DNA of 32,704 bases from a virus (taxonomy: Duplodnaviria > Heunggongvirae > Uroviricota > Caudoviricetes), in IMG/VR virus record IMGVR_UViG_2778261231_000009, positions 1-32,704 of that record; one strand, 5' to 3'. The notes beneath the pieces are model-generated. The model did no database searches. It was not told where the DNA came from and saw nothing but the letters and a program-made list of their open reading frames with translations. The position numbers and the translations under genes are program-made. Positions within the stretch are counted from its first letter, which is position 1. Each line of letters opens with the position of its first letter. Of the stretch, positions 3,293 through 23,701 are shown piece after piece.

Positions 3293-3642
3293 CAGCTGAC
3301 CTTAACCGGATATTTCCAGGTCTGCGGCGTTCCGCTCGCAGACGTGACGGTGATATGAAGCAGCATCCAGCCTTTTTGCCAGTGCTCTGCAGTAACGGAA
3401 ATGGACTGGGCGCGACCGTCGTCAATAATCGGTTGCAGGGCCTGCCGCGAATACTGCACCGCGAGTTGTTGAACGCGAGACACATCCTTTTCGCGGCGGA
3501 GTGTATGCAAAAGAGAGCCCAGAGTTGGATCAGCCCACCATGAGCCAAGGGGCGTCATCAGCCGTAAGTAGACGGCATTCGCTAAAGAGTCTGAGCTGTC
3601 GCCGGTATAATCGCCGGTCGTTGGATCAATCAACATTTCCAT
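3292..3642 (-). CDS. Baseplate wedge protein, GPW/gp25-like (Mu gp46 / V-like)
   Basis: 116 aa; synteny; start codon lies inside an 8-bp inverted repeat and is preceded by the conserved late motif. Confidence 0.75.
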   Translation of the reverse strand: MEMLIDPTTGDYTGDSSDSLANAVYLRLMTPLGSWWADPTLGSLLHTLRREKDVSRVQQLAVQYSRQALQPIIDDGRAQSISVTAEHWQKGWMLLHITVTSASGTPQTWKYPVKVS

Positions 3643-3663
3643 GCCGTAATACTACCGGCATGG
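3639..3663 (-). promoter_or_regulatory. Inverted repeat CCATGCCG-N9-CGGCATGG containing the V start codon; the spacer contains TAGTAT
   Basis: Seen directly on the plus strand (ccatgccgtaatactaccggcatgg). Confidence 0.5.
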
Positions 3664-3678
3664 AAATTTAAATTATCG

Positions 3679-3700
3679 GTGAAGGGGTTCAGTGGGTATT
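3679..3700 (-). promoter_or_regulatory. Conserved late motif, copy 1 (upstream of baseplate gene V): ATACCCACTGAACCCCTTCACC on the coding strand
   Basis: Same core as the other two copies; 24 nt to TAGTAT, then 6 nt to ATG; sits in the 89-bp Q-V intergenic gap. Confidence 0.6.
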
Positions 3701-3731
3701 GCTTTTGAAGGAGAACTTACGTTACCACAAA

Positions 3732-4337
3732 TTACATTTGCTGATTAGGTTTCTGCGTTGTGCCTGCATCACCGCCGTGGTCGTGGTCGTGACCGTCATA
3801 AGTCTCACGCATGGTGTTCAGCGTAGACTTGCCGTCAGCGACTTCATTACTGCCTTTCAGCAATGGTGTATCAAAATCTGCCCGCTCTGAGGCTGTGGTT
3901 TTATACGTTTTGGTATTAACAATATGTTGTTCGGTATTCACCGTGTGCTTTTTAGTATTAACGATATATTCATCGCAGTTTACTTCAATTATTTTTCCGC
4001 GCTTCAGAATAATGTTGCTTCCTTCATCCGAATAAATGGCAAGCTCACCACTTTTCAGGCTCTTTAGCCTGTATGCAGCGTGTTCCGTGGCAATCACCAC
4101 GCTATGACTGGTGCGCCCGTTAAGCGGGAGCACAATGGCTTTAGTCCCCCTGGGCGGGTTGGATGTAAAACCGTACTGCTGAAACATCTCCACATCCTGC
4201 AAAGACTCAGTGGCCAGACCTTTACCCTGAATGGTCTGAATATCACCACCGCTGTTAACCCTTATTAAAACGCCCCTGAAGGCCTTTCTTATACGGTTTA
4301 ACGCCGTGTTAATACGAGAGTCAATTTTGTTCCACAT
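3732..4337 (-). CDS. Baseplate spike / assembly protein V-like (Mu gp45 / Q-like) with His-rich C-terminus
   Basis: 201 aa; C-terminal HDHDHGGD resembles metal-binding spike apexes; internal tandem VNT-type peptide repeats. Confidence 0.75.
   Translation of the reverse strand: MWNKIDSRINTALNRIRKAFRGVLIRVNSGGDIQTIQGKGLATESLQDVEMFQQYGFTSNPPRGTKAIVLPLNGRTSHSVVIATEHAAYRLKSLKSGELAIYSDEGSNIILKRGKIIEVNCDEYIVNTKKHTVNTEQHIVNTKTYKTTASERADFDTPLLKGSNEVADGKSTLNTMRETYDGHDHDHGGDAGTTQKPNQQM
3912..3975 (-). repeat. Three imperfect tandem ~21-bp repeats inside the spike gene, encoding IVNTKKH/TVNTEQH/IVNTKTY
   Basis: Seen directly: ggtattaacaatatgttgttc / ggtattcaccgtgtgcttttta / gtattaacgatatattcatc on the plus strand; coordinates approximate. 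Confidence 0.5.
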
Positions 4338-5538
4338 CGATAATCTCCAGCTCTTTATTTACTTTGGCGCGACGCTTACGTGATTTGCGTTTTTTCGGAT
4401 AAGCATCCGGTATCCATATTCCATCCTCTTTGAGCCGCAGGGTGGTAATGGTGTTGTCTGGACGACCACCTGAAAACTCTCTTCCCATGAGGAAGTAAAT
4501 GTCATCAATGCCATGTGGCTCGCTTCGGACACGAATACGCTGGCCCGGTTGCCATAACTGACCGTTCTCCATGCGATGGCCTTTAACAATTACTGTCAGA
4601 TCAAACCCGTTCAGACGGGCGTCAGCCATGGCCTTTCTCGCGCGATAATCAACCTGCGCCTGATTATCAGCATCACCAGCAACCATAATCTGCGGACGAT
4701 AGAAAGGTACGGTACTGTCGCGAACGGTACTACGTAAGCCATGAAAGCCATTCTCTGCAGAGCCGGTGCTGTCATAAATTGCGTCGGCATCATCATCGTC
4801 TTCAGCCTCAGCGCTCTGATCATCAACGTCAATAACTTCCAGTCTTCCTGACTTTTTCCCCTGGCCGTGTCCCTGTGCCAGCATTGTCAGTTCAGAGAAC
4901 GCACCGGTAATGGATGACCGGTCACTGAGATCGAGGACATTATTTCCCCGACCGTCACGATTCAGAACAAGCGTGGCTACAGGGTCTTTTGTGTAATCCG
5001 GCCCTCCAATTACCAGCGTGCCATCTGGCTCAAACCATGGCCATAACCCGCGTGCAGCAGCTGCACGCTCAAGGGTATCCCACGCACGTTCTCCGGGCTC
5101 CACGCTGACCTTGTCATTACGCAGGGATGACTCAGCCTCGATGCGGATGTTCGTTATCCCCAGCGGTCTGACAACCTGGGCGATCACCTCTTCAAGACTG
5201 AGCTGGCGGGAGGTAAAAACGGGTGAAGCGCAGTCAACAAGCACGGCTGCACCATCGCGACCGGAAAGAGATAAAGAAACCTGCTGACGGGATACCCGGC
5301 GCTGAACCACATCCACCCGACCGGACATGACAACATCATTACCCACCCTGACCAGCACCGGCACACCACGTTTAATGGCCGGAGGGAAAATACCATCAGG
5401 CAGCCCAAGCGTTACGCTCCATGCATCGGAGGGGATCAGAAAATCGGAGTCAATCTGATAGCGGCTCCATGCACTATGGATTTTGCCATCAATAACCAGG
5501 CTCACTGTATTCTGCGAATCTTTATCTTGAGTAGGCAT
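4321..5538 (-). CDS. Baseplate hub protein, Mu P (gp44)-like
   Basis: 405 aa; synteny downstream of the N-like gene; start overlaps the upstream gene end. Confidence 0.8.
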   Translation of the reverse strand: MPTQDKDSQNTVSLVIDGKIHSAWSRYQIDSDFLIPSDAWSVTLGLPDGIFPPAIKRGVPVLVRVGNDVVMSGRVDVVQRRVSRQQVSLSLSGRDGAAVLVDCASPVFTSRQLSLEEVIAQVVRPLGITNIRIEAESSLRNDKVSVEPGERAWDTLERAAAARGLWPWFEPDGTLVIGGPDYTKDPVATLVLNRDGRGNNVLDLSDRSSITGAFSELTMLAQGHGQGKKSGRLEVIDVDDQSAEAEDDDDADAIYDSTGSAENGFHGLRSTVRDSTVPFYRPQIMVAGDADNQAQVDYRARKAMADARLNGFDLTVIVKGHRMENGQLWQPGQRIRVRSEPHGIDDIYFLMGREFSGGRPDNTITTLRLKEDGIWIPDAYPKKRKSRKRRAKVNKELEIIDVEQN

Positions 5539-6853
5539 TCAGAACGTCACCGGCTTTGATATTGTTAGGATTACGTAGTGTCGGATTGAGACGCAGCAAC
5601 TCGGCGGCGCGCGTGTAGTCCTCATACCACAGGTGGGCCAGCAAATGCAGGTTTGTGTCGGACAATACCACTCGCGTAGTCAGTGGTGGTCTGCTGGTAA
5701 TAACCGCTGAGCCCAGCTCCTGAACGGTCAGGGCGATATCCTTGAGACCTTCAACCACGGGTTGCCAGGTCACGCCACCAGGTGTTTCACCGGCACTCAG
5801 GTTTTGCGTATCAGCAGCAAAGGTGTCCCGCGTCTGGTCGATTGCCTCCTGAATGGCCGTCCTGGTGTCGTTGGTGATCTGCTCAATATCAACGGGAGAC
5901 AGAATATCGCTGATGCTGCTGTCACTGAGTATGTCGGAAGCATCAAGTGCCAGCTGGATTGCAACCTGAGTTTTTACCGCCGTTACCAGCTCGGTAATAT
6001 CCGAGGTTGATGAGCCTGCCGGAACGGCAACAGCAACCGTTTTTTTCCCGGTCACTATCTGCTGAGGTAATGCGGCCACATCCTGCAGATTGTTACGGCC
6101 ATTCTTCCAGTCGGCCATCACGATGCCTGCTGTGCCGGAAACGTCTGAGGACTGTGAATAGCTTCCTGGATTATTACTGACACTTGATTTGGACTGAAAC
6201 GACGTCAGACTCAGCGCACTCTGCAGGTCATTCATGAACGATTTTGGGTAATTAACAAAATCCGAGGTGGTACTGACAAATCCCGTCAGTTCCCCCTTAA
6301 GCACGGTCACCATATTCAGCGTCGTGGTTGCCAGCGATTTCGCTTTTTTCATCCACTTTTTCGCTGTACGCAGAGGCGAGAGAATATTGTCGATGGCCGT
6401 CTGGGCTTTCTCCAGAGCGGATTGCGCCTGGTTGAAAACGATATCAGCTTTCGACAGCGGGAAATCGCTGCCAAAGAAAGGCAGATTAAGTCCCCCCTGG
6501 ATAAAGACCACTTCGACAACGCAGTAATCAACGTTCTCCGCTTCATGCGATGCCTGATACTCAATGCACTGCATGCCCGTCATGGAGCCGAAAACGGGAT
6601 GAATTAATTCTGCGCTACCGCGAGTATCCAGTGCGGCCAGAAACGCCTGCAGCCGCACATCATAATCATCACCCCAGAAAAGGACTGTCATCCGCAGGTT
6701 ACGAGGCTTGCGGCCAAGATCATCAACATCACCACCGTCGACATAGGGATACTCATACGTCGCAATGTCGCGACTGGCGCTGTCACGGGTATTAACCACA
6801 TCAAAGCGGACGCCCCTGAATGAGGCATCCTGTAATGAATCTTCCCAGCTCAC
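5522..6853 (-). CDS. DNA circularisation protein N (Mu gp43)-like, with LysM-like C-terminus
   Basis: 443 aa directly after the tape measure; C-terminal …YEDYTRAAELLRLNPTLRNPNNIKAGDVLNAY looks LysM-like. Confidence 0.8.
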   Translation of the reverse strand: MSWEDSLQDASFRGVRFDVVNTRDSASRDIATYEYPYVDGGDVDDLGRKPRNLRMTVLFWGDDYDVRLQAFLAALDTRGSAELIHPVFGSMTGMQCIEYQASHEAENVDYCVVEVVFIQGGLNLPFFGSDFPLSKADIVFNQAQSALEKAQTAIDNILSPLRTAKKWMKKAKSLATTTLNMVTVLKGELTGFVSTTSDFVNYPKSFMNDLQSALSLTSFQSKSSVSNNPGSYSQSSDVSGTAGIVMADWKNGRNNLQDVAALPQQIVTGKKTVAVAVPAGSSTSDITELVTAVKTQVAIQLALDASDILSDSSISDILSPVDIEQITNDTRTAIQEAIDQTRDTFAADTQNLSAGETPGGVTWQPVVEGLKDIALTVQELGSAVITSRPPLTTRVVLSDTNLHLLAHLWYEDYTRAAELLRLNPTLRNPNNIKAGDVLNAYSR

Positions 6854-9018
6854 TGCGGGCCTCCTGTTGAGCCGCGAACGGATTGTTCGCCGTTGTATTC
6901 ATTAACAGCTGATGCAATTTCACGTCCGTCTAATACCAGCTTTGTGGTGAGGTTAATTGGTTGTGATTTTTGTTGCTGCTGGGGCAGCAGATAAGACGAT
7001 ACGCCTGTGGTTGCTGGTGTGTTTTGACCCATAGTGGCCGGTGAACTCCACCATGATTTGATCTCATCCACGGCATCCAGCAATCCGGGGCGGGCTTTTA
7101 CTGCATCCAGCATGCGTGCTGACTCACTGGAATAATTGTCGACCTTGAGTCTCGCACGCGCATCAGCATCGCCTCGCTCAACATGAACGAGCGGCGCATC
7201 CTGCATGCCCTGGTAGAGTGCCAGCGGAGCAGCAACGCGCCCCAGAACTTTACCTGCACCACCCCGGATAGCGGACCAGGTGCGCCCCAGAGCAGTACCG
7301 CCAGCAGACGGAACTCCCCCTGCAGGAGAACCAGGCATTTTTATTCCGCCCCCCGTCAGGAAATTGAGCCCGGCAAAAGCTACAGCCGCTGCTGTCATGG
7401 CTTTAATGCCAGTGGTGGCACCTGCAATCGCAGTGGTTAGCCCCGGATACTCACCAGCATATTTGGTTAATTTTTCTGAAATGTCACCCAGTGCATCAGA
7501 TAAAGGGGCAATGGAATCCATTGCAGCAAAGTCCTGTTCGTTTTTTAACTGCCCAGTTTTATATCCCGGCTGTTCTGACATTAAAGCAAAGTTGATGTTA
7601 CCGGCAGTATTACCAACTGGTAAATTACGTTGTGAATTCGCCCCTGAAATTACGTCTTGGGTGTATTTTTTATTCCCTCTATACCCTAATAGAGCTAATA
7701 GCGCCTGCTGGTCAGCAATAATTTTACCTATACCAGAACCTTCAAGAATCCTTGCTTGCGAACTAATTATATTTTTACGTTCACTTTCCGGTGCTGTTTT
7801 GAGTTTATCTTCAAGTTTTTTATATGCTGGATTTGAAGCCACAATTTTATCAACAATCGTGTTAAAAGCTTCTAGAGGATTTATACCGTTACCAACAGCT
7901 TTTGCAAGACTTCCAGAGAGGTCAATTCCTTTACCGCTGGGTAGTTTAATCCGTGCTGCAGCGTTAGCAGCATCCTGACTATTCAGCTTTAGCAATAAAT
8001 TATTAAGGTTATTACCGGCCTCGTCCGGTGAACCTGATGTAATAGCTGACGCCTGGTTCCAGCCAAGCAAGACGGCAAAATCATCAAGACCTTTCATACC
8101 GACATTGCCAGCACTGGCAAGCTGCTTAGGAAGCCACTTAGCCATATCTTTCAATTCAAAAGAGCCACTTTGCCCAGCGCTAATTGCCATATTAAGTGCA
8201 GACTCAAGCTCACCGTCTTTTATGCCAAACGATTGTTTTAATTTTATGGCAATATTTGCCAAATCTTCTGGAGCTGCGCCAGTGGCTGTGGAATATTTTT
8301 GAATTAAAGGTAGCATCACCTTTGCTGACGGCATATCAACAGCCCCTGAAGCCAGCATTGTATCAAGGGTATCAGCTGCTGATTCTTTTGTTCCGCCGCC
8401 AGCACGAACAGCCTGGCGAACCATCGAATCCATCTCCACCATTCCTTTTCTGCGACCTTGCAGCCCTTCATCGGCATAAGCAGTATTGGCCATCATTGCA
8501 AGTCGCTGGCGATAGTCCATCTGTTTAGATACTGGTGTTGATAATACGGCCCCTGCAGCAGCAATCCCGCCAGCAACTGCAGCAACGCTGGAACCAGCAG
8601 CACGAAAGCGCTGCATGCGCGTCATTGAGTCATTCACGCCACCAAGTTCAGTCCGCAGCGTTTTGACCCTGTCAGTCATGGCCCTGAAAGCCCGATTCTG
8701 CTCATTCGCGGACAGCATGCCTGTGCGGGTAAGGCGGTTGTAGGCCGCCATGGTCTGCTGTATTTCACGCTGAATATCGCGCTCAGAACGAATACCAAGG
8801 GTAGATCGCGCCGAGCTGGCGCGACGGTATTCCTCAATCAGAGAACGGGAGGCACGAATCGCTGTGGTTGAGTTCTGCTGGCGGGATTTCGCCAGCTCGT
8901 CATCGGTCTTTTGCGCCGCTTTGGTATCACGGCTGATGCCCTGCAGTGCCTGCTTAAGCACTTTAGAGCCGGTATCACGGGCAAGCAGCTGCAGCGCCAG
9001 TTGTAAGTTACGCGCCAT
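6850..9018 (-). CDS. Tail tape measure protein
   Basis: 722 aa, Ala/Gly-rich with coiled-coil character, immediately downstream of the frameshifted chaperone; contains an AT-rich central segment. Confidence 0.85.
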   Translation of the reverse strand: MARNLQLALQLLARDTGSKVLKQALQGISRDTKAAQKTDDELAKSRQQNSTTAIRASRSLIEEYRRASSARSTLGIRSERDIQREIQQTMAAYNRLTRTGMLSANEQNRAFRAMTDRVKTLRTELGGVNDSMTRMQRFRAAGSSVAAVAGGIAAAGAVLSTPVSKQMDYRQRLAMMANTAYADEGLQGRRKGMVEMDSMVRQAVRAGGGTKESAADTLDTMLASGAVDMPSAKVMLPLIQKYSTATGAAPEDLANIAIKLKQSFGIKDGELESALNMAISAGQSGSFELKDMAKWLPKQLASAGNVGMKGLDDFAVLLGWNQASAITSGSPDEAGNNLNNLLLKLNSQDAANAAARIKLPSGKGIDLSGSLAKAVGNGINPLEAFNTIVDKIVASNPAYKKLEDKLKTAPESERKNIISSQARILEGSGIGKIIADQQALLALLGYRGNKKYTQDVISGANSQRNLPVGNTAGNINFALMSEQPGYKTGQLKNEQDFAAMDSIAPLSDALGDISEKLTKYAGEYPGLTTAIAGATTGIKAMTAAAVAFAGLNFLTGGGIKMPGSPAGGVPSAGGTALGRTWSAIRGGAGKVLGRVAAPLALYQGMQDAPLVHVERGDADARARLKVDNYSSESARMLDAVKARPGLLDAVDEIKSWWSSPATMGQNTPATTGVSSYLLPQQQQKSQPINLTTKLVLDGREIASAVNEYNGEQSVRGSTGGPQ

Positions 9019-9021
9019 GGA

Positions 9022-9254
9022 TTATCTCCGTTTGCCGACTTTCTTCCGGCGTTGCGATTTGACAGTGCGGGTTGTACGGGTGGTGGTTTGCCCGGTTTTC
9101 TTTCCATGTAACCGGGCAAGCGCTTCGGTGTAGCCGTCGAGTTCCGTTCGGGTCATGCTTCCTATTTGTTGTTCACTGATCCCGTATCGCCCGAGGGCAA
9201 GGACGAGGGTTCGGTACCCGGTGAGCTTTTGTTCAAATCCATCCGCTTTTTTTT
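9022..9254 (-). CDS. -1 frameshift extension of the tail assembly chaperone (G-T-like fusion product)
   Basis: From the slippery site the -1 frame stays open for about 74 codons (…ADGFEQKLTGYRTLVLALGRYGISEQQIGSMTRTELDGYTEALARLHGKKTGQTTTRTTRTVKSQRRKKVGKRR) and stops at TAA (plus 9022-9024) 3 nt before the tape-measure ATG. Hand-translated. Confidence 0.55.
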
Positions 9255-9920: not shown

Positions 9921-9933
9921 TATGGTTTACTCC

Positions 9934-12634: not shown

Positions 12635-12637
12635 GGC

Positions 12638-13953: not shown

Positions 13954-13966
13954 GGTTCTCTCCTTA

Positions 13967-14359: not shown

Positions 14360-14370
14360 TTCGCTCTCCT

Positions 14371-15486
14371 TTATTTGAGGTATTTCGCGACGCTTTCCGG
14401 GTCATTGCCCATCATGGAGCAGATGGCCGGGTCAATCGCATCATCTTCAGCACCCTGTGACGGGTGTGACGGAAGGCCTGCAGGCGGTTGCCCCTGAGTC
14501 TGACTGGTCGTCAGTGCGGCAATCTTTGGCGCTTTTTCGATAAAGGCGGTAAGACTGGCCGGATCGGATTTCGCCAGTGACGCAGCCCATGCCTGCTGTG
14601 CCGGAAGCAGACGACCGTCGCCGAGGGCAACCGTAATCAACGCTTCAGCCTGTTGCGTGGCGAGTGCGGCGGTATTACCCGCACCTGCACGCTCTGTTGC
14701 CTGCTGAACGGCTGAATGCATGACCTCCACCGAAACCCACTTAGCCGGGTCAGGCGTGTCGAGTTTCGCTGACAGGTCGGCGATGCTCTGCGCGTTCTGG
14801 TTCAGGATATCCAGCAGACTGACCGACGCCGCTGCAGTCCCCTGGCCATTGGAAATCATGGTGATGATTTTTTGCAGCTCAGCCATAATCTCTTCTTTCG
14901 TTGAGGCGGTTGGCAGATTGAGCATCCAGCGCAGGTTGCTCAGTAGCTCATTGAGAAATTCTTCATCCATTTCGGTCTGACCCTCTGTGGTTAAATGCGC
15001 GGCCATCAGGGAGGCGGCAGCAAGTAACACTTCCTCCATCCCGTCCACCGCTGGTGTATTGGTCAGCGCGGCGTTAAGCAACTCCAGTACCTGACCGGTT
15101 TTGTCGTAAGAAAATACGGGGGAAATAAAGCGATACTCTTTCGCCTCGACCATTGCAGCCGCAGCGGCTGTCCACTCGACATCGATGGCGAACAAACCCT
15201 CGCCATCCCGCCACTCCAGCTTTTTGAAGAATGCAGCTGCAGGCGCAGGCAGACCGTTTTTAGCGGCCCGAAGGGTCTGGTGTTCGTAGTCAAGGACATA
15301 GGGGGTGGCGCGGGCATCAGCAGCGGCAATAAGGCGCTCTGCAATTTCCCGCGTCATCAGCCAGGCGGCGCATTCGGTCGGGCGACCATCACGGGCGCGG
15401 AATTCACCAGCCGGAAAGAGCTGAATGACACCGGGAGTAGCGGTGTTAATTTCCTGGGTGAGTGAAGCGATGAGTGTCTTTTTCAT
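14371..15486 (-). CDS. Head protease/scaffold protein (Mu I / gp32-like)
   Basis: 371 aa; synteny; ATG has no Shine-Dalgarno and is abutted by a 7-bp inverted repeat, preceded by the conserved late motif. Confidence 0.85.
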   Translation of the reverse strand: MKKTLIASLTQEINTATPGVIQLFPAGEFRARDGRPTECAAWLMTREIAERLIAAADARATPYVLDYEHQTLRAAKNGLPAPAAAFFKKLEWRDGEGLFAIDVEWTAAAAAMVEAKEYRFISPVFSYDKTGQVLELLNAALTNTPAVDGMEEVLLAAASLMAAHLTTEGQTEMDEEFLNELLSNLRWMLNLPTASTKEEIMAELQKIITMISNGQGTAAASVSLLDILNQNAQSIADLSAKLDTPDPAKWVSVEVMHSAVQQATERAGAGNTAALATQQAEALITVALGDGRLLPAQQAWAASLAKSDPASLTAFIEKAPKIAALTTSQTQGQPPAGLPSHPSQGAEDDAIDPAICSMMGNDPESVAKYLK

Positions 15487-15506
15487 GGTGCCGACGATAC
15501 GGCACC
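15487..15506 (-). promoter_or_regulatory. Inverted repeat GGTGCCG-N6-CGGCACC abutting the I start codon; the spacer is the TATCGT hexamer
   Basis: Seen directly on the plus strand (ggtgccgacgatacggcacc). Confidence 0.5.
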
Positions 15507-15519
15507 ACTGCGGGGAGGT

Positions 15520-15738
15520 TCAGATGAAGAGGTTCAGTGGATTATCGCTGAGGATCGCTTTGGTTGTCGGCTTATCGGGTTTAGCAGACTGACGCCTGCG
15601 GGCAAAGTATCGGTCAGTGAACCACTCAGCAACTTTTATAACCAGCCCCCCTAAGATGCCAATGAAAACCCACTGCTGCGGGGTGAAATAATCAAGGAAA
15701 GCTTTGAATGTGTACAGTTGCCCGCTCCCGTAATGCAT
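15520..15738 (-). CDS. Small predicted membrane protein (72 aa) in the G-I spacer; may not be coding
   Basis: One hydrophobic helix (WVFIGILGGLVIKVAEWF); weak Shine-Dalgarno; its 3' end overlaps the conserved late motif. No gene is expected at this position in Mu. Confidence 0.3.
   Translation of the reverse strand: MHYGSGQLYTFKAFLDYFTPQQWVFIGILGGLVIKVAEWFTDRYFARRRQSAKPDKPTTKAILSDNPLNLFI
15523..15544 (-). promoter_or_regulatory. Conserved late motif, copy 2 (upstream of I): TAATCCACTGAACCTCTTCATC on the coding strand
   Basis: 17-nt core CCACTGAACCNCTTCAY shared with copies at ~3679-3700 and ~23680-23701; 24 nt to TATCGT, then 7 nt to ATG. Confidence 0.6.
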
Positions 15739-15854
15739 TTATGAGCCCAGGCCTTTTTAAACCGCTTTTAAAAACGTCTGAACACCTCTTTGGCGAATCA
15801 CTCTAGCACAATCAGACTGAACGCGTCACAGCGCGTTACAGGACGAATTTGCCC

Positions 15855-16397: not shown

Positions 16398-17680
16398 GAT
16401 TTCAGCTCCAGCAGCTGCGTCGCGCGTTCAGATAACACATCACCAGGAGTGACGGTGGCACCGGCGTTCATCAGCGACAGACGCCAGCCATTGTCAGACT
16501 GCACACCACGCACCGCGCGGATACCGTTCTGCCCGGAGAGGAGCCACACCAGAGCATCATCATCAAGCCAGACACCCGCTGGCTGACGTAGCAGAACGGG
16601 AAGCTCTGACCACATCGGGCCTGGAGCCAGCCGGACATCCTCTTCGTGAATGCTTAATGTGATCGCACCGTTAACACCACGCTCTTCGAGGCGATTCAGC
16701 AGCTCAGGCTGGATACCGCCAACGCGCCTCAGGTCGCCACGGGTCTTCTGCCGCACGCTGACGGTGTCGACCCAGCGACGCACATCATCACTGACGGCAT
16801 CCAGCACTGCAGGTTCAGACAGTGTTTCATGGATGGCCTGAGAGGCAATCCGGGGCGTGGTGGTTGCAGATTTATTCATAAGGCGCTGTCCGAGAGAAGA
16901 GAGCCAGCCCTGACCCGGATTGTGCCCGAATCCGGCATCAGGCGTGTAAAGCTCGCCGTTGAAGCGTAACGCCTTAACGTCACGGGTTTCTTTTGGTCCC
17001 CATGCCTGTTGTACCGTGACAATGTCCTGCTCCCACGATTTGACCTCAATCCCCATGCGGTCAGCATCCGCCTGGGTTCTGGCGCGAATGCGGCACCGGC
17101 AGTGGTATCCGTCAGGCGGGTACATGAACTGCCACACAGGATCGTCATAGCGGGCAGTGAAACCATTGAGCCTGGCGTGGAGTGGCCGGGTGTGCATATC
17201 CATGACGGCCACGCGTTCCCATATGGGGCGAAACTCCGCGTTGGCCATCTGCTCCGCATAGCGACCGGCACCATACGCCGCCTGCATATTGGTTTCAAAG
17301 ATGGTGCGCAGACGGCGTGGCGTAAGTTGTTTACCCTCCAGTACACCATCTTCATCGGCGACCAGCCTGGCACGGTCAGCAAGCCAGCCCTTACGGATCA
17401 ACGTTGGGGTAATCTGCCGTTCGAAGTCCCGGAGCGTGCCGCCGTTAACAATATGCTCGCGCAGCGATTGATGAATATCCTCAAGCACATCCTGTTTAAG
17501 GACGCCCGCCACGGTGAAACTGGTGGCGTGGGCGCGGGCTTCAACATCGTGCCAGTTAAAGCCGGTGGTGTAGCCCTTCGACTCAAAGTAGGCTATCGCT
17601 TCTTCGGGCTTTAACCCGATGGCGTACCCCAGATCAACATCAGCTTTCGGCATTGAGTCGCCCCCAGACCTCGCTGACAA
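16394..17680 (-). CDS. Head morphogenesis protein (Mu F / gp30-like, SPP1 gp7 family)
   Basis: 428 aa; synteny after portal. Confidence 0.85.
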   Translation of the reverse strand: MSARSGGDSMPKADVDLGYAIGLKPEEAIAYFESKGYTTGFNWHDVEARAHATSFTVAGVLKQDVLEDIHQSLREHIVNGGTLRDFERQITPTLIRKGWLADRARLVADEDGVLEGKQLTPRRLRTIFETNMQAAYGAGRYAEQMANAEFRPIWERVAVMDMHTRPLHARLNGFTARYDDPVWQFMYPPDGYHCRCRIRARTQADADRMGIEVKSWEQDIVTVQQAWGPKETRDVKALRFNGELYTPDAGFGHNPGQGWLSSLGQRLMNKSATTTPRIASQAIHETLSEPAVLDAVSDDVRRWVDTVSVRQKTRGDLRRVGGIQPELLNRLEERGVNGAITLSIHEEDVRLAPGPMWSELPVLLRQPAGVWLDDDALVWLLSGQNGIRAVRGVQSDNGWRLSLMNAGATVTPGDVLSERATQLLELKS

Positions 17681-19214
17681 AAAGCGCCTGCTTTATCAGC
17701 TGTTGCAGCTGCGCATCATCCAGCTGAGGATAACTCGCAGCAATGATATCCAGTGCCTCATCAGGGCTTTGCCCCTTGCTCAGAGCCGAGACCAGCGGCG
17801 CAATCAGCTTATCCATGGCCACCGCGATGCTCTCCCCTGGCGATGTGGCGCTGTCCAGCGCATCCTGCGCAGGGTCAATAACCTCACCCGTGGTGCTGAG
17901 TGCCGTGAAATGGCGGAATACCGGCGTGGTGCTCAGCCCCACCGGAGAGGGTGCAGCAGGCGGCGTCAGCACAGCTTCGTTATCTTTTGGTACCGGAATC
18001 CCGACCTTTTTGTGTATCCATGAGGTCGGAATAGTGTCCATCCCGGCGCGTACCAGTGCGGAAACACCATTGGCAAAGGTTTCAATGCTCTCCAGCTCGC
18101 GGGTATCAAATACCAGACGCGGCTGACGGCGCGGGCTGACGTTATAACCATTAATGGCCAGTAACATACGAATGAAGCCTCGATAAAACCCTTCCAGCTG
18201 TCGGGCATCAGCGGTCAGGAGATCGTGACGGACTTCGTTATGCACATTACCAAGGGCGTTTGTTGAGGACTTACCGTCCGCCTGTGACGTCAGCGTGCCG
18301 CCGAGAATGACCTTTGATTCGGTACGCTCGCACCAGTTAATCATCGCCATGAAAGGATCAGACTGCCCCTCGGCGGCATCCTTAAATTCGATTTTGGTGT
18401 TGTCAGGAATAATCCCCGATGCGTTATGACCGATACTGACCAGCGCTTCCATGAGTTTATCCTGCTCATCCTGGCTGGCCCCGGACATATACGACCCGAT
18501 ACGCGGCGGCAGTCCGTAGATTTCAAGGAACTCAGCGAGATCGCGCACGCTGTAGTTTTTAAACAGATACGGCCAGACCAGCACGCGGTATAACCCTGAC
18601 TGCGCGATATAACCTGACTTGGCGTTGTGCGTATGCACCAGCCAGCCAAACGGCCAGAGCTCTTCTCCACCCAGCGTGCCGGTGTTAAGACGCACCTCGT
18701 CCCCGGCTTCCGGCGTGGTACAGAACCAGCGATGCGGACGCAGTTTGATTTTGACGGGCAACCACAGATTGCCGTCAAGTTCCCACTTTTCAATCTCCTG
18801 AGCAGAAAAACCATGCCCGATAGCTTCCGCCGCGTTCAGGGTAATATCTTCCATTTCCTGAAGGTCAGCGAACCAGCTGGCCACCATCGCGGCGATCTGC
18901 TTTTCTTCCGCCGTCGCGTTCGGCGGTGGCTCGATGCTCCAGTCCAGAGTAAGCAGCGCATTCTTGCGCTTGGCCATTTCGGAAAAAATATGCCCGTCCC
19001 GCTCAACCATATCTTCGAAGAGGTCAGCCTGAGCCGCCAGATCGCCGCGCTCAGCCGCTTCAAGCAAACGAGGAAGACGGGCAATGGTCATACCCCGCGA
19101 GGGGTGAGTTGGCCAGTCGCGCTGAAGCTCGAACGTGCGGGAGGTCTGGGGGGCTTTAAGCACCTCTTTATTAAGCGGGCGACCATACTGGTCAAGAATC
19201 TGAACCATTATCAA
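17640..19214 (-). CDS. Portal protein (Mu H / gp29-like)
   Basis: 524 aa; synteny immediately after terminase large subunit. Confidence 0.85.
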   Translation of the reverse strand: MIMVQILDQYGRPLNKEVLKAPQTSRTFELQRDWPTHPSRGMTIARLPRLLEAAERGDLAAQADLFEDMVERDGHIFSEMAKRKNALLTLDWSIEPPPNATAEEKQIAAMVASWFADLQEMEDITLNAAEAIGHGFSAQEIEKWELDGNLWLPVKIKLRPHRWFCTTPEAGDEVRLNTGTLGGEELWPFGWLVHTHNAKSGYIAQSGLYRVLVWPYLFKNYSVRDLAEFLEIYGLPPRIGSYMSGASQDEQDKLMEALVSIGHNASGIIPDNTKIEFKDAAEGQSDPFMAMINWCERTESKVILGGTLTSQADGKSSTNALGNVHNEVRHDLLTADARQLEGFYRGFIRMLLAINGYNVSPRRQPRLVFDTRELESIETFANGVSALVRAGMDTIPTSWIHKKVGIPVPKDNEAVLTPPAAPSPVGLSTTPVFRHFTALSTTGEVIDPAQDALDSATSPGESIAVAMDKLIAPLVSALSKGQSPDEALDIIAASYPQLDDAQLQQLIKQALFVSEVWGRLNAES

Positions 19215-20860
19215 AATCCTCCTGAAGGACCGAACCTGTCTCCGCTATGGCCACGACGGGGAACAGCTTTAAATTCAAAATTACCAGCGCCGGAAACGGC
19301 CAGCATCCAGAGCATATGCAGGGCATCTGGCCCGTCATCATGGTCAGCTTTGGGGAAATGCCGGAGCTGGTCGATAAGTGTGGTCTGGGAAGGGTGCAGC
19401 CGTATCAGGCCGTTGGCCATATGTGGCTGCAGTGACTCAATGCGCAGGAGCTTATCAACCGAAGGCGTGACGGCCCTGGCAGGAACGGGGATACCCATCG
19501 CAGCGGAGCGCTTCACCAGTTCGGTGCGCAGGAACTCCTGGAACTGGACGGACTCGACCGCCCAGACCAGACAGTTATATTCCCGCTGCAGCTCGATAAC
19601 GTCAGAGATAATTTTGTCCGGCACACGCTTACGGATACGCGCTTCGACCACATCCAGAATGCCGGTGAAGCGGTTGAAGCCACCGACCAGTAATGCGGAA
19701 GGGTCGCGGCTGTTACCGTGTTTACCCAGGCTGGGGTCACATGCGCCATAGAAGCGCCACTCGTTAAGGCGGTTGACCCAGAAGTTAATGCAGCCGGTAA
19801 ATGGCGCATCTTCGCCGCTGACGGGATCGTTCTGATATTCCGCATCAAAGGTACTGTGGCCATCACGGGCGCGGATGAGCATCAATGCATAAAGCGGACG
19901 CGCAGCCCATGAAACAACAGCTCCTTCATCCATCTCAGCCTGATGCTCACGGTAATATGCCTGCGCCAGAACCTGACCATCTTCATCGTTGTTGCGCAGG
20001 ATCTCTTCCCATTTATCCCACAGCGACATATTGTGCGGCCAGCTGATGAGCGCTTTGAACCGGGCCCGCGTCCATAGCGGATTTTTAAGGGTGCGGGAAA
20101 GCACGGAATCGTAGTGCAGGATTGTCCCGATATACACCACATCGAACTTGGCCCCCGCACCACCGAGCGGCAGGACGGTTTTTTTGAGCCAGTTATCGAG
20201 CTTGTCACGCTGCTCAGGGTTACGCACCAGCTCGTCGTTCTCGATATCATCGAGCACAGCCAGGTCAGGACGATACGGGCCATGGCGCAGGCCACGCAGC
20301 TTTTTTCCACTACCGGCGACCTGCACCTTAATGTCGTTGCGGGTGAGAATTGTCCCGGCCTGCCAGACGCGGCCACCGCCCGTCGCTTCAGGAAAGTCCA
20401 TCAGCAGACGGGGGTTAAACTGCAGTTCCGCCTTTATCGCCTCCAGCATCGGATAGGCCTGGTCGATGGAGTCCATAATGATGACCGGGTAATGCTTGAG
20501 CGCCAGCACAATGCACCAGATGACAAAAAGCTGACTCACGATGGTGGATTTGGCTTCACCACGGGGAGCCGCTATTGCATCGTTCTGGCTCCCCGTGGCC
20601 TGGATGATTTCAGGCAGGCGCTTGTAGAGATAGTTATGCAGTTCGCTGCGGGCAGCATGGCGGACATAGTGCGGAAAATAATGCTGCACAAAGTACTCAA
20701 ACCCCGTTACAGGGTCAGCGACAAGGCCACGACGCGCAGCGACAGCAGCAGCAGAGGGGTCAAAGCCCACATCTTCCGCTTCAATGGTGCGACGAAGACT
20801 GGCGGAAAGTTCCGCAAGTTCGGCAAGAAAATCTTTGCTGGATAACTTAGTTCTGGCCAT
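19211..20860 (-). CDS. Terminase large subunit (Mu gp28-like)
   Basis: 549 aa; ATPase-like N-terminal region and nuclease-like C-terminal region; synteny. Confidence 0.9.
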   Translation of the reverse strand: MARTKLSSKDFLAELAELSASLRRTIEAEDVGFDPSAAAVAARRGLVADPVTGFEYFVQHYFPHYVRHAARSELHNYLYKRLPEIIQATGSQNDAIAAPRGEAKSTIVSQLFVIWCIVLALKHYPVIIMDSIDQAYPMLEAIKAELQFNPRLLMDFPEATGGGRVWQAGTILTRNDIKVQVAGSGKKLRGLRHGPYRPDLAVLDDIENDELVRNPEQRDKLDNWLKKTVLPLGGAGAKFDVVYIGTILHYDSVLSRTLKNPLWTRARFKALISWPHNMSLWDKWEEILRNNDEDGQVLAQAYYREHQAEMDEGAVVSWAARPLYALMLIRARDGHSTFDAEYQNDPVSGEDAPFTGCINFWVNRLNEWRFYGACDPSLGKHGNSRDPSALLVGGFNRFTGILDVVEARIRKRVPDKIISDVIELQREYNCLVWAVESVQFQEFLRTELVKRSAAMGIPVPARAVTPSVDKLLRIESLQPHMANGLIRLHPSQTTLIDQLRHFPKADHDDGPDALHMLWMLAVSGAGNFEFKAVPRRGHSGDRFGPSGGF

Positions 20861-20884
20861 GATTAATTTGCCCTTAACAGCCTG

Positions 20885-21091
20885 TTAATGGTGATTACGG
20901 AGGGCTTTATTAACCTCGCTGATAAAGCGGTTCATCGACTCGATGCCGGTTTTATCTCGTTCAACGTCGAGGCTGTAGCAGCCTGTCGACGTCGCGACGG
21001 TTACGTTTCTACCGCCCGCGAACCGGATCCCCAGCACGTCACTGGCCATCACAAAAATTTCACTGTTAACCCGGATTAACTGGTCAGCCAT
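20885..21091 (-). CDS. Small hypothetical protein between the terminase subunits
   Basis: Internal start MADQLIRVN… chosen from track ORF 20885..21196; about 68 aa; no recognisable domain. Confidence 0.4.
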   Translation of the reverse strand: MADQLIRVNSEIFVMASDVLGIRFAGGRNVTVATSTGCYSLDVERDKTGIESMNRFISEVNKALRNHH

Positions 21092-21584
21092 AGTGTTGTT
21101 CCATTTCCTTGCCGAATGGTTCAAGGATCTCAACGAATGCCGCCAGGTGCTTCGGATAGTGCTCTGCAACAAACGCGCTGAGCTTCTGGATAACATCCAA
21201 CGCTACCGCCAGCTGACTCACCTCCGGCAGTATTTTCTTGTTGGCTGCGACGGCTTTGTTAAATGCATCGGCAAGGCTTGCCAGAAGCTCGACGCGCTCT
21301 CCCGGAGGGAGCTGAGACTCGGTTGTGAGCAGTTCCAGCGTGGTCTGATACTGGGTCATTAACCCGGTGAGAATGGCGCGGCCAATCTCTTCAAGCCCAT
21401 TCCCGGCCATAAGGTGTGCGGCGCGTAACTTATCCCAGTCATCGCCTGCGTCCTGGGCTTCCTTCTTCCAGCGGCGAGCTGTCGCAAATGCCACGCCAGC
21501 CTGAGCGGATGCGATTTCAAGCGACATCTGGCCGAAGATATAAGATCGTCGCAGTTTTTCCCGTGTTTCCTGCGGATGCGCCAT
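21084..21584 (-). CDS. Putative terminase small subunit / DNA-binding protein (Mu gp27-like, DUF1804-type)
   Basis: Internal start MAHPQETREKLRRSYIFGQ… chosen from track ORF 21084..21719; position upstream of terminase large subunit. Confidence 0.65.
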   Translation of the reverse strand: MAHPQETREKLRRSYIFGQMSLEIASAQAGVAFATARRWKKEAQDAGDDWDKLRAAHLMAGNGLEEIGRAILTGLMTQYQTTLELLTTESQLPPGERVELLASLADAFNKAVAANKKILPEVSQLAVALDVIQKLSAFVAEHYPKHLAAFVEILEPFGKEMEQHYG

Positions 21585-21585
21585 A

Positions 21586-21870
21586 TCACAGCTCCAGTTT
21601 TGCGCGAATGAGCAGAATCGCCACCGTGATGACACCGCCTGCAATTCCACCCGTAATCGCACCGGCAGACGCACCACGGCGAGCCGCATCGTCGCTGATG
21701 GTCGTGAGGCGAACATCAATCCGGCTCAGCTTGTCATTAATCCCGCCCAGAATGTCCGGGCTGACGGGGGCCTGCAGGCGTTCGAGCTGAGCGGAAATCC
21801 GGCTCAGCGTTTCCTGCTCGCTCTGGCTGATTGTCGCGCGGCGGGTTCTGCGCTTATGTCTGGCTTTCAT
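21586..21870 (-). CDS. Small membrane protein (C-terminal transmembrane helix), lysis/packaging-region protein of unknown role
   Basis: 94 aa; basic N-terminus, coiled-coil-like middle, Gly-rich hydrophobic C-terminus (GAITGGIAGGVITVAILLI). Confidence 0.5.
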   Translation of the reverse strand: MKARHKRRTRRATISQSEQETLSRISAQLERLQAPVSPDILGGINDKLSRIDVRLTTISDDAARRGASAGAITGGIAGGVITVAILLIRAKLEL

Positions 21871-22121
21871 TTGTCCTGTTTCCTGTCCAGTTTGTTATCA
21901 ATGCGCTCGATAGCCGCTCGCAGCTCCCTCATCGCATCCATCATTGCGGTGTAGTTACTTTTCGCATCCTCACGGCGCTGGTATTCATCCCGGATGCGAT
22001 CAACCGCCTTTTCCAGGTCGGTAATGTCTTTTTGCAGACGGCGTATCCAGATGGTGCCGAAGGTTGCAGCCAGCGCCAGCGCAATCTGAAAGGCCATATC
22101 AAGAGTCATGATGTTGTTCAC
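21867..22121 (-). CDS. Small membrane protein (N-terminal transmembrane helix plus coiled coil), holin/antiholin-like candidate
   Basis: 84 aa; FQIALALAATFGTIWI helix followed by charged coiled-coil. Confidence 0.5.
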   Translation of the reverse strand: MNNIMTLDMAFQIALALAATFGTIWIRRLQKDITDLEKAVDRIRDEYQRREDAKSNYTAMMDAMRELRAAIERIDNKLDRKQDK

Positions 22122-22750
22122 TTCCTGTAATACTCATTTATTGCCTGCAGCCTGCCCTCAATGAGCTGGCACCATGCGCCGTATTCCGCTGAAAACGACA
22201 CTATTCCAGTGGGGGAGAGTCCGCCACCGGTGCCTGTGGTCTGGCCGGTATGACCAGGAGCGCCGCTGGCGGTGGCTGGCAGATGCTGACCAGCGGGGAG
22301 GCTTTCGGATCCTGAGTAGCCAAAGGCTTCACGGAAGAGCTGCAGGCCGCCAGGGCCAATGCCGGTATAACCAGGACCATCTTTATCAAGTGCATCTTTA
22401 AGCCTCTTTTTAAGATCGCGAACAGTCTCGTCATGTGCCTTTTGCTTTTCAGCCAGCTCGCGGGTCAGCGCATCCGCTTTCTGCTGCCAGGCGTTCTGCT
22501 TATCAAGTGCAGCCTTCAGGTCAGCTGCATACTGATTTGCAGCGCTGAGCCTCTCCTGATCCCACTGCCGTTCTTTTTCACTGAAACCATCAGTCAGGCG
22601 TTGCTTCTCCTGGCTGAAGGCCAGCGCCTGAGCGTCCAGCTTGTTGCCTGTGAGGAAGGTGCCGAACCATATCCCGCAGCCTGCCAGAACCACGACGACG
22701 AGCAGCGGTTTCCAGCTAACCCTCAGGATTTTCTGGGCTGCTTCCCACAT
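22118..22750 (-). CDS. i-spanin (Rz-like)
   Basis: Internal start MWEAAQK…; N-terminal helix LLVVVVLAGCGIWFGTFL then a long charged coiled-coil periplasmic domain; contains an embedded lipoprotein ORF in another frame. Confidence 0.65.
   Translation of the reverse strand: MWEAAQKILRVSWKPLLVVVVLAGCGIWFGTFLTGNKLDAQALAFSQEKQRLTDGFSEKERQWDQERLSAANQYAADLKAALDKQNAWQQKADALTRELAEKQKAHDETVRDLKKRLKDALDKDGPGYTGIGPGGLQLFREAFGYSGSESLPAGQHLPATASGAPGHTGQTTGTGGGLSPTGIVSFSAEYGAWCQLIEGRLQAINEYYRK
22201..22395 (-). CDS. o-spanin (Rz1-like outer-membrane lipoprotein), embedded in the i-spanin gene
   Basis: Internal start MHLIKMVLVIPALALAAC… gives a signal peptide with an L-A-A-C lipobox, followed by a Pro-rich mature peptide; entirely inside the i-spanin ORF in a different frame. 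Confidence 0.6.
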   Translation of the reverse strand: MHLIKMVLVIPALALAACSSSVKPLATQDPKASPLVSICQPPPAALLVIPARPQAPVADSPPLE

Positions 22751-22979
22751 CGCGCACCTCTCTGGCTCGTTTGATGGACATATGTTTTGATGCCTGACTC
22801 TGAGCCACCCACGCGCCCAGATAGGTGAGATACAGCTCACCAGGAGTTTCGGGGCGGGTAACGGTGAGCCAGACCAGTACGAAGGAACTGACCAGGAAGG
22901 CCAGAAAAACGATGGTGTCTGACGTAGAGAGACGACCGGTGGCCGGGTTCGTCACCAGATCGCGCAGAGATATTTTCAT
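22716..22979 (-). CDS. Small membrane protein, holin candidate
   Basis: 87 aa with one strong helix (IVFLAFLVSSFVLVWLTV); ATG overlaps the endolysin stop. Confidence 0.5.
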   Translation of the reverse strand: MKISLRDLVTNPATGRLSTSDTIVFLAFLVSSFVLVWLTVTRPETPGELYLTYLGAWVAQSQASKHMSIKRAREVRDVGSSPENPEG

Positions 22980-23620
22980 AGCGCCGCCTTAGCGACATTC
23001 AGCCGCGCCACGCGGTCAGCCTGACCTTCAGCCGGAGGGTTGATACGCCGGGTTACGGCCAGAAAATTGCCTTTGTCAGCCAGCTCGTTGCAGCCATTTG
23101 CCTTCCAGTACCAGGCAGCGCTGCGGGCTGCGTTGAGATACTCCAGTAACAAATCGGGATTCGCGATGAGATCGAGGCCCAGCGCCTTACCGCAAAGGCG
23201 GTAATTATTGCGCAGGGTAATCTGAATCAGGCCACGTCCGCGAAAGCGCCAGCCATCGCCTGATGCTTCATTACCGTTACCCCCCTGATTTGCGTAAACA
23301 TAATTCGCCATTTTTTCAGGGTTACGGGTATAGCGTCGGGCAAATTCAATCTCGCAGGGCTCGATAATACGATTCTTATTGAGATCGAAGTCGCTGCGGA
23401 AAATACGCGCCACGCGCTCAGCATCAGAGTAATAGAGATTTTCACTGAGCCGACTGAAACCCGCGCTTTCATGGCCGGTTTGAGCAATAAAGGCGGCAAG
23501 TCTGGCGGGTGTATTAATTTCGAATTCAGCGGTGGCTTTACCGAATGGTTCAAACCATCGTTGCGCCATCACTGGCGAAAGAGCTGCTGCACGCTGAAAT
23601 TGTGGGAGTGTTAAAAGCAT
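22976..23620 (-). CDS. Endolysin, glycoside hydrolase family 19-like (soluble, no N-terminal signal-anchor)
   Basis: 214 aa; …AAFIAQTGHESAGF… and overall pattern resemble GH19 phage lysozymes; first gene after the late motif and a leader hairpin. Confidence 0.8.
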   Translation of the reverse strand: MLLTLPQFQRAAALSPVMAQRWFEPFGKATAEFEINTPARLAAFIAQTGHESAGFSRLSENLYYSDAERVARIFRSDFDLNKNRIIEPCEIEFARRYTRNPEKMANYVYANQGGNGNEASGDGWRFRGRGLIQITLRNNYRLCGKALGLDLIANPDLLLEYLNAARSAAWYWKANGCNELADKGNFLAVTRRINPPAEGQADRVARLNVAKAAL

Positions 23621-23621
23621 A

Positions 23622-23649
23622 ACGCCATCCGGTTAAAAAGGGATGGCGT
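23622..23649 (-). promoter_or_regulatory. Leader hairpin (9-bp stem, 10-nt loop) immediately upstream of the endolysin ATG, covering the GGA Shine-Dalgarno-like bases
   Basis: Plus strand acgccatcc-ggttaaaaag-ggatggcgt; seen directly. Confidence 0.5.
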
Positions 23650-23679
23650 CAGTATTTCATCGGGTTAGGTGAATAATCA

Positions 23680-23701
23680 GGTGAAGAGGTTCAGTGGAAT
23701 T
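23680..23701 (-). promoter_or_regulatory. Conserved late motif, copy 3 (upstream of lysis cassette): AATTCCACTGAACCTCTTCACC on the coding strand
   Basis: Same 17-nt core as copies 1 and 2; about 60 nt upstream of the endolysin ATG. Confidence 0.6.

Follow-up and report, generated by a model that had tools for sequence, protein, structure and literature searches.

A repeated box before three late gene blocks

The window, that is, the whole 32,704-nt stretch of DNA that was analysed (IMG/VR virus record IMGVR_UViG_2778261231_000009), holds a 17-mer, CCACTGAACCNCTTCAY, in three exact copies at positions 3679–3695, 15524–15540 and 23681–23697, every one on the minus (gene) strand. No match occurred in any of 100 dinucleotide-preserving shuffles, where none was expected, which bears out the original prediction of a motif that occurs three times upstream of late gene blocks. 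When up to three mismatches were allowed, the sole extra match in the window was an inverted near-copy at 23737–23753, and this near-copy is not kept in a 95%-identical relative, which is carried by E. coli FDAARGOS_1303. Family searches identified the genes 3′ of the boxes as gp46 (PF07409), I (Mu-like_Pro) and a GH19 endolysin gene. Endolysin and I had been named correctly beforehand; the third gene had been called V, which holds only in the sense of gp46 and not of the database 'baseplate assembly protein V' (gp45), since the third box sits where 90 nt separate gp45 from gp46. At the I site, the 17-mer overlaps the final codons of a 72-aa holin-like ORF. The window also contains a Mor/C-family activator gene of 144 aa (24214–24648, minus strand; Pfam Mor, 1.8e-8; PHROG 836 'late transcriptional activator', 1.7e-39), and GemA and a Ner-like helix-turn-helix protein are encoded as well.

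Reading of the sequence confirmed that a hexamer follows the end of the 17-mer after exactly 24 nt at all three sites. On the minus strand these −10-like hexamers are TAGTAT (3654–3649) for gp46, TATCGT (15499–15494) for I and AATACT (23656–23651) for the lysis genes. The gp46 ATG (3642) lies 6 nt after its hexamer, so that the A of the ATG is the predicted +1, and the I ATG (15486) lies 7 nt after its own; the endolysin ATG is at 23620. A promoter consensus scan found no consensus −35/−10 pair at the three sites. The box was also considered as a −35 element at normal or ECF sigma spacing, and this was rejected, as nothing is conserved 16–18 nt 3′ of the box.

In an information-content profile over 112 unique sites, conservation extends over some 27 bp, between about −57 and −31 as counted from the predicted +1. 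By exact match and comparison with relatives, and for the lysis site also by this profile, the candidate activator boxes were placed on the minus strand at 23675–23701 (lysis operon), 15518–15544 (head operon, from I) and 3673–3699 (baseplate/tail-fibre operon, from gp46). The motif had been put at about −57 to −37; its upstream position holds, but the conserved block is longer than 17 bp. In consensus form the box reads CCACTGAACCCCTTC..CTGAtT and includes CACTGAAC and TC(13–14). The small dyad noticed earlier, TGAA-N4-TTCA, is present in the window, where its centre falls at −43.5 counted from the predicted start site, but it is weak and only partly kept in relatives, with position 15 being A in 65% and C in 35% of sites. 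A literature search with the box sequence returned unrelated primers only.

Conservation in related prophages

Related loci, counted as 163 (about 3 Mb) or as about 230, were scanned on both strands for box matches with at most two mismatches, and the box was found at the same three places in related Mu-like prophages. Among 146 matches, 137 lay on the coding strand directly upstream of homologues of endolysin, the head protease I or the baseplate protein gp46, and five further matches lay upstream of an unrelated gene that occupies the position of endolysin. By site, the box was found before endolysin in 33 relatives, before I in 59 and before gp46 in 50. These sites were picked by their match to the box, so the apparent conservation of the 15-mer itself is inflated.

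The spacing between box and hexamer was 24 nt in 101 of 104 unique sites (42 of 43 in the I class), and all 21 unique sites of the endolysin class carried AATACT, GATACT or GACACT at this distance. Within the hexamer, A(−11) and T(−7) were conserved at 92% and 93% of sites, respectively, while neighbouring positions held little information and the spacer was otherwise variable; in the gp46 class the A and T (A17 and T21) were invariant across 36 distinct sequences. Furthermore, the start codon followed the hexamer by 6–7 nt at all 83 I and gp46 sites (43/43 for I at 6–7 nt and 40/40 for gp46 at exactly 6 nt).

The three sites mark the boundaries of the lysis, head and baseplate modules, and their flanks are mosaic among relatives, as might be expected if the repeats were left over from some small repeat or mobile sequence, or were joints of module recombination, with no regulatory role. 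We regard this as extremely unlikely. The box is strictly strand-specific and stands upstream of the same three genes only, its distances to the −10-like hexamer and to the start codon are fixed, and it is kept across bacterial orders, from Enterobacterales to Halothiobacillus and Azotobacter hosts, while the flanks diverge.

The candidate activator and the promoter class

The Mor-like protein of the window is 19–27% identical to Mor and C of Mu and shares with them the GG..Y.P strand and residues of the C-terminal helix; its C-terminus, QQELF, resembles a clamp-binding motif. A PDB sequence search with this protein gave no match at E ≤ 1, and there was no second Mor-family match among the scanned ORFs of the early and lysis regions of the window. 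A 166-aa gene between the Mor-like gene and endolysin, the position of C in Mu, was considered as a second Mor/C regulator and rejected: it had no family match, and its product has three hydrophobic segments and is thus taken to be a membrane protein.

In the GTGCTGAAC clade, the head protein is 85% identical and Mor only 40% identical, and GTGCTGAACACCCTC occupies the three corresponding places at an unchanged spacing. In addition, the lysis and I promoters of one genome shared 3′-half variants of the box, with a mean Hamming distance of 5.68 compared to 7.30 after shuffling (0 of 10,000 shuffles as low). Judged from these sequences, box variants follow the Mor lineage and vary in concert within one genome, and the Mor-like protein is presumed to be the factor that binds the boxes. 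Late promoters or operators bound by another factor, such as a host protein, GemA, Ner or a repressor, would fit with a box sequence that is unlike known Mor and C sites and with the GemA and Ner-like genes in the window. We nevertheless hold this to be highly unlikely, given that a host factor leaves unexplained the lineage-specific box variants common to the promoters of one phage, that Mor is the only known late-activator family present, that a position at −57 to −31 without a −35 is the Mor/C pattern, and that the neighbouring 166-aa product appears to be a membrane protein.

In Mu, C sites are centred at −43.5 and the region from −52 to −34 is required (PMC2582627), the recognition sequence of C is TTAT-N5-6-ATAA (PMC12867686), and the footprint of a Mor/C tetramer covers about 26 bp, or three turns (bioRxiv 10.1101/2025.05.02.651988). 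The 27-bp block fits this footprint. The distance from the ATAA of the C box to the hexamer in Mu Plys and PI is 24 nt, as at the sites in the window. Like Mu Plys, PI, PP and Pmom and the Mor-dependent Pm, the three sites have a recognisable −10, no −35 and a candidate activator site that overlaps the −35 region, and, as in Mu, promoters are placed before the endolysin gene and I, with a Mor/C-family gene just upstream of the lysis genes. There are also differences from Mu. The box is unlike TTAT-N5-6-ATAA, with a short dyad that relatives keep poorly; since the Mu C sequence is absent from the sites, they would belong to the architectural class and not be targets of Mu C itself. Mu has two Mor/C-family proteins whereas one was found here, and there is accordingly no sign of a distinct middle promoter. 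As for the third promoter, it lies before gp46, whereas that of Mu lies inside N, upstream of P, and a mom promoter was not found in the window.

Position, spacing, the missing −35, the Mor-family gene, the co-variation and the Mu-like geometry thus agree with the activator-dependent late promoters of the original prediction. We conclude that a Mu-like transposable prophage in all likelihood has three sigma-70 late promoters here, with the three boxes as activator sites bound by its own Mor/C protein, and that the element is very probably of an ordinary kind, the Mor/C-dependent late promoter type, with a previously undescribed recognition sequence. In the proposed scheme, a single Mor/C-family protein would be made from the early operon, bind the ~27-bp block and recruit or activate host RNA polymerase at promoters with a weak −10 (tAnnnT) and no −35, which would serve the lysis/packaging operon, the head operon from I and the baseplate/tail-fibre operon from gp46. 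With a single, early-made activator, the cascade would have two tiers, early and then late, and not three as in Mu. This would give, in testable form, a regulatory map of three promoters, one activator and a two-tier cascade for a widespread Mu-like prophage group that occurs in E. coli, Klebsiella, Kosakonia, Serratia, Pectobacterium, insect symbionts and other gamma-proteobacteria, in whose prophages the box is specific enough for annotating the starts of late operons. It would also provide a second, very different recognition sequence of the Mor/C family, which may help to decipher how these tetramers read DNA, given that structures of Mor and of C bound to promoter DNA are available.

RNA hairpins at the three sites

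Each predicted promoter lies within a sense-RNA hairpin that shows covariation. The 3′ arm takes in the start codon or the Shine-Dalgarno sequence, and the 5′ arm lies, in all three classes, at or upstream of the +1 predicted from sequence. These hairpins, with the I and gp46 hexamers in the loop and the start codon 6–7 nt on, were not part of the original prediction. Folding z scores of the three window hairpins ranged from −3.6 to −5.8. At endolysin, the hairpin ACGCCATCC / GGATGGCGT (23621–23650, minus strand; MFE −18.1 kcal/mol, z −5.8) has a 5′ arm that begins right after the hexamer and a 3′ arm that carries the Shine-Dalgarno-like GGATGG and ends 1–2 nt ahead of the ATG; its stability falls from −17.7 to −2.6 kcal/mol when the RNA begins at the predicted +1. 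At I, the hairpin GTGGTGCCG / CGGCACCAT (15485–15508, minus strand; MFE −16.6 kcal/mol, z −3.6) flanks the hexamer, which lies in its loop, and reaches the start codon. At gp46, the hairpin TTTCCATGCCG / CGGCATGGAAA (3636–3666, minus strand; MFE −19.7 kcal/mol, z −5.5) likewise holds the hexamer in its loop and has the start codon within its 3′ arm. Both I and gp46 have weak Shine-Dalgarno sequences.

The pairing is maintained among relatives. In the endolysin alignment, 94% of cells were paired compared to 27–53% when the partner was slid, with changes on both sides in 5 of 11 pairs; in the gp46 alignment, 82% were paired compared to 29–48%, with changes on both sides in 6 of 13 pairs. In four phages, an A-to-G change in the gp46 start codon, giving a GTG start, is compensated by a T-to-C change. 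The stem register of the I class shifts by 1–2 bases between subgroups; this class was therefore analysed sequence by sequence, with no single consensus structure on the MAFFT alignment, and its arms differ in relatives yet pair (TGCTGCC/GGCGGCA, GGCCC/GGGCC and GCCGCC/GGCGGC). Stem mismatches were G.U 43 times and A.C 9 times (16 and 3, respectively, in the I class), which indicates that selection maintains the fold in the sense RNA. Folding energies of whole sense and antisense segments differed little on average and, unlike this mismatch count, were not decisive; the more stable strand was the sense strand at most I and gp46 sites and the antisense strand at most endolysin sites.

Such structures could also mean that box and hairpin form one RNA-level signal for processing, stability or translational control in long polycistronic transcripts, with no promoter and with the 'hexamer' as a loop motif. 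The selection in sense RNA and the covariation agree with this, as do the loop position of the hexamer at I and gp46 and the fact that the early genes are not separated from the endolysin gene by a terminator, none being found between them in the terminator scan. Yet the endolysin hexamer, which lies outside and 5′ of its hairpin, keeps its 24 nt to the box, and so it is the box, rather than the stem, that the hexamer goes with. Its conserved A and T stand four bases from each other and match the two key positions of a −10; the box has no RNA pairing partner and no covariation; no Rfam family matches; and the arrangement copies the positions and geometry of Mu Plys and PI. Taken together, these points make a purely RNA-level signal very unlikely, and activator-dependent late promoters remain the preferred reading.

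Two other explanations of the hairpins were tried and rejected. They do not resemble intrinsic terminators, being followed by ATGAAAAAG, GGAAATG and ATGCTT with no U tract, and the terminator scan was empty at the sites. Nor do they belong to a known RNA family, as the whole window gave 0 matches in Rfam 15 at the gathering threshold.

If the boxes do mark late promoters, the hairpins might add a second layer of control. We tentatively suggest, as a possibility less likely than the promoters themselves, that the late promoters of this clade, and in part Mu PI, lie inside hairpins so that promoter choice gates translation, with I and gp46 leaderless. Read-through transcripts from upstream might have begun in the early operon, in the late operon that comes before or in host genes next to the randomly inserted prophage. 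In these, the start codon or Shine-Dalgarno sequence of the first late gene would be held in the stem and translation would be locked; transcripts begun at the late promoter would be without the 5′ arm and open for translation. Since the start codons of I and gp46 come 6–7 nt after the hexamer, their late mRNAs are predicted to be leaderless, while the endolysin leader would be about 22–29 nt. Such a lock with leaderless starts, if true, would be a way for a randomly inserting phage to insulate its lethal late genes from outside transcription. Against the idea, gp46 starts with GTG in the four phages mentioned above, and in E. coli translation from a leaderless GUG is poor. Nor is it obvious what need I and gp46 would have of protection from read-through in the late phase. 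Nothing pertinent came out of a literature search on whether Mu-like phages have leaderless late genes.

For IS10 and IS50, Davis, Simons and Kleckner in 1985 and Krebs and Reznikoff in 1986 reportedly described how read-through transcripts are inhibited by folding back. There, as proposed here, sequence from upstream of the element's own transcription start base-pairs with the start codon or the ribosome-binding site, and transcripts from the proper promoter alone are translatable. However, what is protected in IS10 and IS50 is the transposase gene of an insertion sequence, situated at its end, whereas the lock suggested here by structure and covariation would gate three internal late operons of a transposable phage, with the −10 in the loop at I and gp46. 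As for leaderless starts, lambda cI mRNA from PRM is a leaderless phage mRNA, and I and gp46 would resemble it in a predicted transcript start at the A of the start codon and no Shine-Dalgarno sequence; they differ in being structural late genes needed in quantity, in the GTG start of four relatives and in 5′ ends that are predicted. Within Mu itself, PI has a significant hairpin that straddles its mapped +1, but the leader of Mu I measures about 24 nt and includes a Shine-Dalgarno sequence, in contrast to the 6–7 nt from the hexamer at I and gp46 here.

The predicted late-promoter box in the window and its relatives

The window covers the greater part of a transposable, Mu-like prophage; all genes lie on the – strand. 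Its early and regulatory genes encode a Ner-like helix-turn-helix protein (32477–32704), transposase A (30418–32475), B (29479–30372), GemA (24593–25105), a Mor-family protein (24214–24648) and a 166-aa membrane protein with three hydrophobic segments (23700–24200), along with further early genes. The other genes encode a GH19 endolysin (22976–23620) with lysis and packaging genes; terminase, portal, F, G and the major head protein T; a 72-aa holin-like ORF between G and I (15520–15738; Pfam P21 holin S, 2.4e-9; PHROG holin); the head protease/scaffold I (14371–15486); and the tail proteins, namely sheath, tube, tape measure, N, gp44, gp45 (3732–4337), gp46 (3292–3642), gp47, gp48 and tail fibres. 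The closest records were a prophage in E. coli FDAARGOS_1303 (95% identical) and Klebsiella phage ST405-OXA48phi1.1 (~75% identity over the ~17% of the query that aligns).

The original prediction of a triple motif followed at 24 nt by a hexamer was borne out: the 17-mer CCACTGAACCNCTTCAY occurred exactly, and on the coding strand, only at 3679–3695, 15524–15540 and 23681–23697 (0 of 100 shuffles matched), and reading the sequence gave the expected TAGTAT, TATCGT and AATACT. One box lies between gp45 and gp46, one shortly before I, and one between the membrane-protein and endolysin genes. An inverted near-copy with 3 mismatches, TCACTGTACCATTTCAC (23737–23753, + strand), lies in the membrane-protein gene, 40 bp before the lysis promoter; it is probably due to chance, because in the 95%-identical relative the stretch upstream of the box is different. 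The final codons of the 72-aa holin-like ORF overlap the I-promoter box; this region was found only in the closest relatives, and at the same place in the E. coli relative (L002), RefSeq has an opposite-strand hypothetical gene (17525–17758).

Relatives were retrieved without using the motif, by querying with the major head protein and its 10-kb flanks (80 genome loci and 80 viral contigs), and 163 loci (~3 Mb, both strands) were scanned for CCACTGAACCCCTTC with up to 2 mismatches. Of the 146 matches, 137 lay adjacent to and upstream of homologues of I (59), gp46 (50) and the endolysin gene (28), all on the coding strand; 5 more preceded an unrelated gene occupying the endolysin's position, and only ~4 were located elsewhere. 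The motif was thus not scattered over random non-promoter positions, the outcome that had been named as speaking against the original interpretation. Hosts of box-bearing relatives ranged from Escherichia, Klebsiella, Kosakonia, Trabulsiella, Serratia, Pectobacterium and Symbiopectobacterium to Halothiobacillus and Azotobacter.

At two relative loci (L021 3136, from Azotobacter, and L109 268), a box-like sequence with the 24-nt spacing, hexamer, hairpin and ATG arranged as in the window preceded genes that have no homology to gp46, I or the endolysin gene; distant relatives may thus have a different set of late operon starts. In a Symbiopectobacterium locus (L007 ~8453–8520), the I box was intact and the hexamer, hairpin and first I codons were absent, apparently lost by deletion between two GTCGCCGCC copies (compared with L006 and L009), which points to decay of the prophage in this symbiont.

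Promoter anatomy and comparison with Mu

A profile of 112 unique sites (redundancy-weighted effective number ~60) gave a conserved block of ~27 bp, (T/A)(T/A)Ac-CCACTGAACCCC-t-TC-(a/c)-n-CT-g-A-t-T. The spacer after it carried almost no information except C at –21 and –20, and was followed by two sharp peaks four bases apart (A 92%, T 93%). Of 104 unique sites, 101 had the hexamer 24 nt after the 17-mer and the others had it after 23 or 25 nt; in every unique site the second hexamer base was A and the sixth was T. With the hexamer set as –12 to –7, the predicted numbering places the block at –57 to –31. The proposed dyad TGAA-N4-TTCA is present, centred at –43.5, but is only partly conserved, as many relatives have TTCC; some have an imperfect direct repeat in its place (CCACTGA...TCCACTGA). 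No consensus –35/–10 pair was found at the sites.

In Mu, C-dependent sites need –52 to –34 and contain an imperfect dyad with its centre at –43.5 (PMC2582627), the C consensus is TTAT-N5-6-ATAA (PMC12867686), and Mor and C tetramers bind ~three helical turns (bioRxiv 10.1101/2025.05.02.651988). We found in the Mu genome that the ATAA of the C box precedes the hexamer by the same 24 nt at Plys (TAGACT) and PI (CAAACT). The sites thus agree with those of Mu in architecture, in geometry and in being placed at the endolysin gene and I, but not in recognition sequence. Taken together, sequence analysis supports the original interpretation of activator-dependent late promoters, here very probably of the Mor/C type with a previously undescribed box; the literature searched contained no mention of this box in a phage context.

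A candidate activator

Among the ORFs scanned, the window has a single Mor/C-family gene. Its product is 19–27% identical to Mu Mor and C, and retains the invariant GG..Y.P strand and C-terminal helix-turn-helix residues. The gene that takes the place of Mu C, directly upstream of the lysis promoter, was rejected as a second regulator: it encodes the 166-aa membrane protein, for which no family match was found and which has homologues in both closest records. The Mor-like protein ends in ...NQQELF (24214–24228), and this QQELF resembles the family's beta-clamp-binding motifs (QL[SD]LF; C-terminal consensus QPDLF), recently shown to be necessary for Mu C function (PMC12867686). Late transcription may be coupled to replication here also.

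A clade with an 85%-identical head protein and a 40%-identical Mor carried GTGCTGAACACCCTC at all three of these sites, again 24 nt from the hexamer. In addition, we compared the non-homologous lysis and I promoters of each genome using loci anchored on Mor. Both promoters of one genome shared variants of the box's 3′ half (for example TTCCTCTTATT, CATCAnATTAT, GTCATATAACT and GAAGCCCsTCAA), and the mean within-genome Hamming distance was 5.68, compared to 7.30 after genome shuffling (0 of 10000 shuffles as low). Both tests indirectly suggest that the box is tied to a phage-specific factor.

Hairpins and predicted leaders at the promoters

A hairpin, overlooked in the original prediction, encloses each promoter (z scores –3.6, –5.5 and –5.8 in the window). 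In the I and gp46 promoters an arm lies on either side of the hexamer, placing it in the loop, and the start codon follows the hexamer by 6–7 nt at I (43 of 43 unique sites) and exactly 6 nt at gp46 (40 of 40). At endolysin sites the 5′ arm starts directly after the hexamer, and the 3′ arm bears a Shine-Dalgarno-like GGATGG or GAGGTGG, ending just before the ATG.

Arm sequences varied among relatives while complementarity was kept. In the gp46 class, 82% of cells were paired versus 29–48% with the partner slid, both sides changed in 6 of 13 pairs, and covariation reached the first start-codon base (ATG to GTG, offset by T to C in four phages). In the endolysin class, 94% were paired versus 27–53%, and both sides changed in 5 of 11 pairs. 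Because stem mismatches were G.U in 43 cases and A.C in 9, we infer that the hairpin is selected in sense RNA and not as a DNA cruciform or as a protein operator. The position of the hexamer is fixed relative to the box, not to the hairpin: it lies in the loop at I and gp46 and 5′ of the stem at endolysin sites. We therefore interpret it as a –10 signal in the DNA, and the hairpin as a distinct RNA signal that overlaps it.

Mu PI (L163 10020–10056) also has a 7-bp perfect inverted repeat, CTGCTCA/TGAGCAG (a significant hairpin, z –5.1), which spans the start site deduced from the published promoter oligonucleotide and lies next to the Shine-Dalgarno sequence of I; no mention of it was found in the literature examined.

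If transcription is taken to start 7 nt past the hexamer, the ATG would begin at +1 for gp46 and at +1 or +2 for I. This would make both mRNAs leaderless, which agrees with their weak Shine-Dalgarno scores; the leader of the endolysin mRNA would measure ~22–29 nt. The 5′ arm would lie at or upstream of +1 in all three classes, and promoter-initiated transcripts would thus lack it; in the endolysin class, starting the RNA at the predicted +1 reduced hairpin stability from –17.7 to –2.6 kcal/mol. In RNA from upstream, the start codon or Shine-Dalgarno sequence would be paired. The embedded hairpin and predicted leaderless starts lend these promoters some added interest. IS10 and IS50 are protected from outside transcription by fold-back, which the proposed lock resembles. 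We regard this lock/leaderless layer as tentative and give it somewhat less than even weight; the four GTG starts count against it, and a benefit of locking I and gp46 in the late phase is hard to see.

No terminator was found between the early operon and the endolysin gene in this clade. In the divergent-Mor clade (L095, L102, L108 and L145) a strong intrinsic terminator follows Mor directly and the first late promoter has a ~150-nt leader; in L149 (~560–640) the 24-nt box–hexamer spacer contains a terminator-like hairpin with a T run. These are alternative ways of dealing with early read-through.
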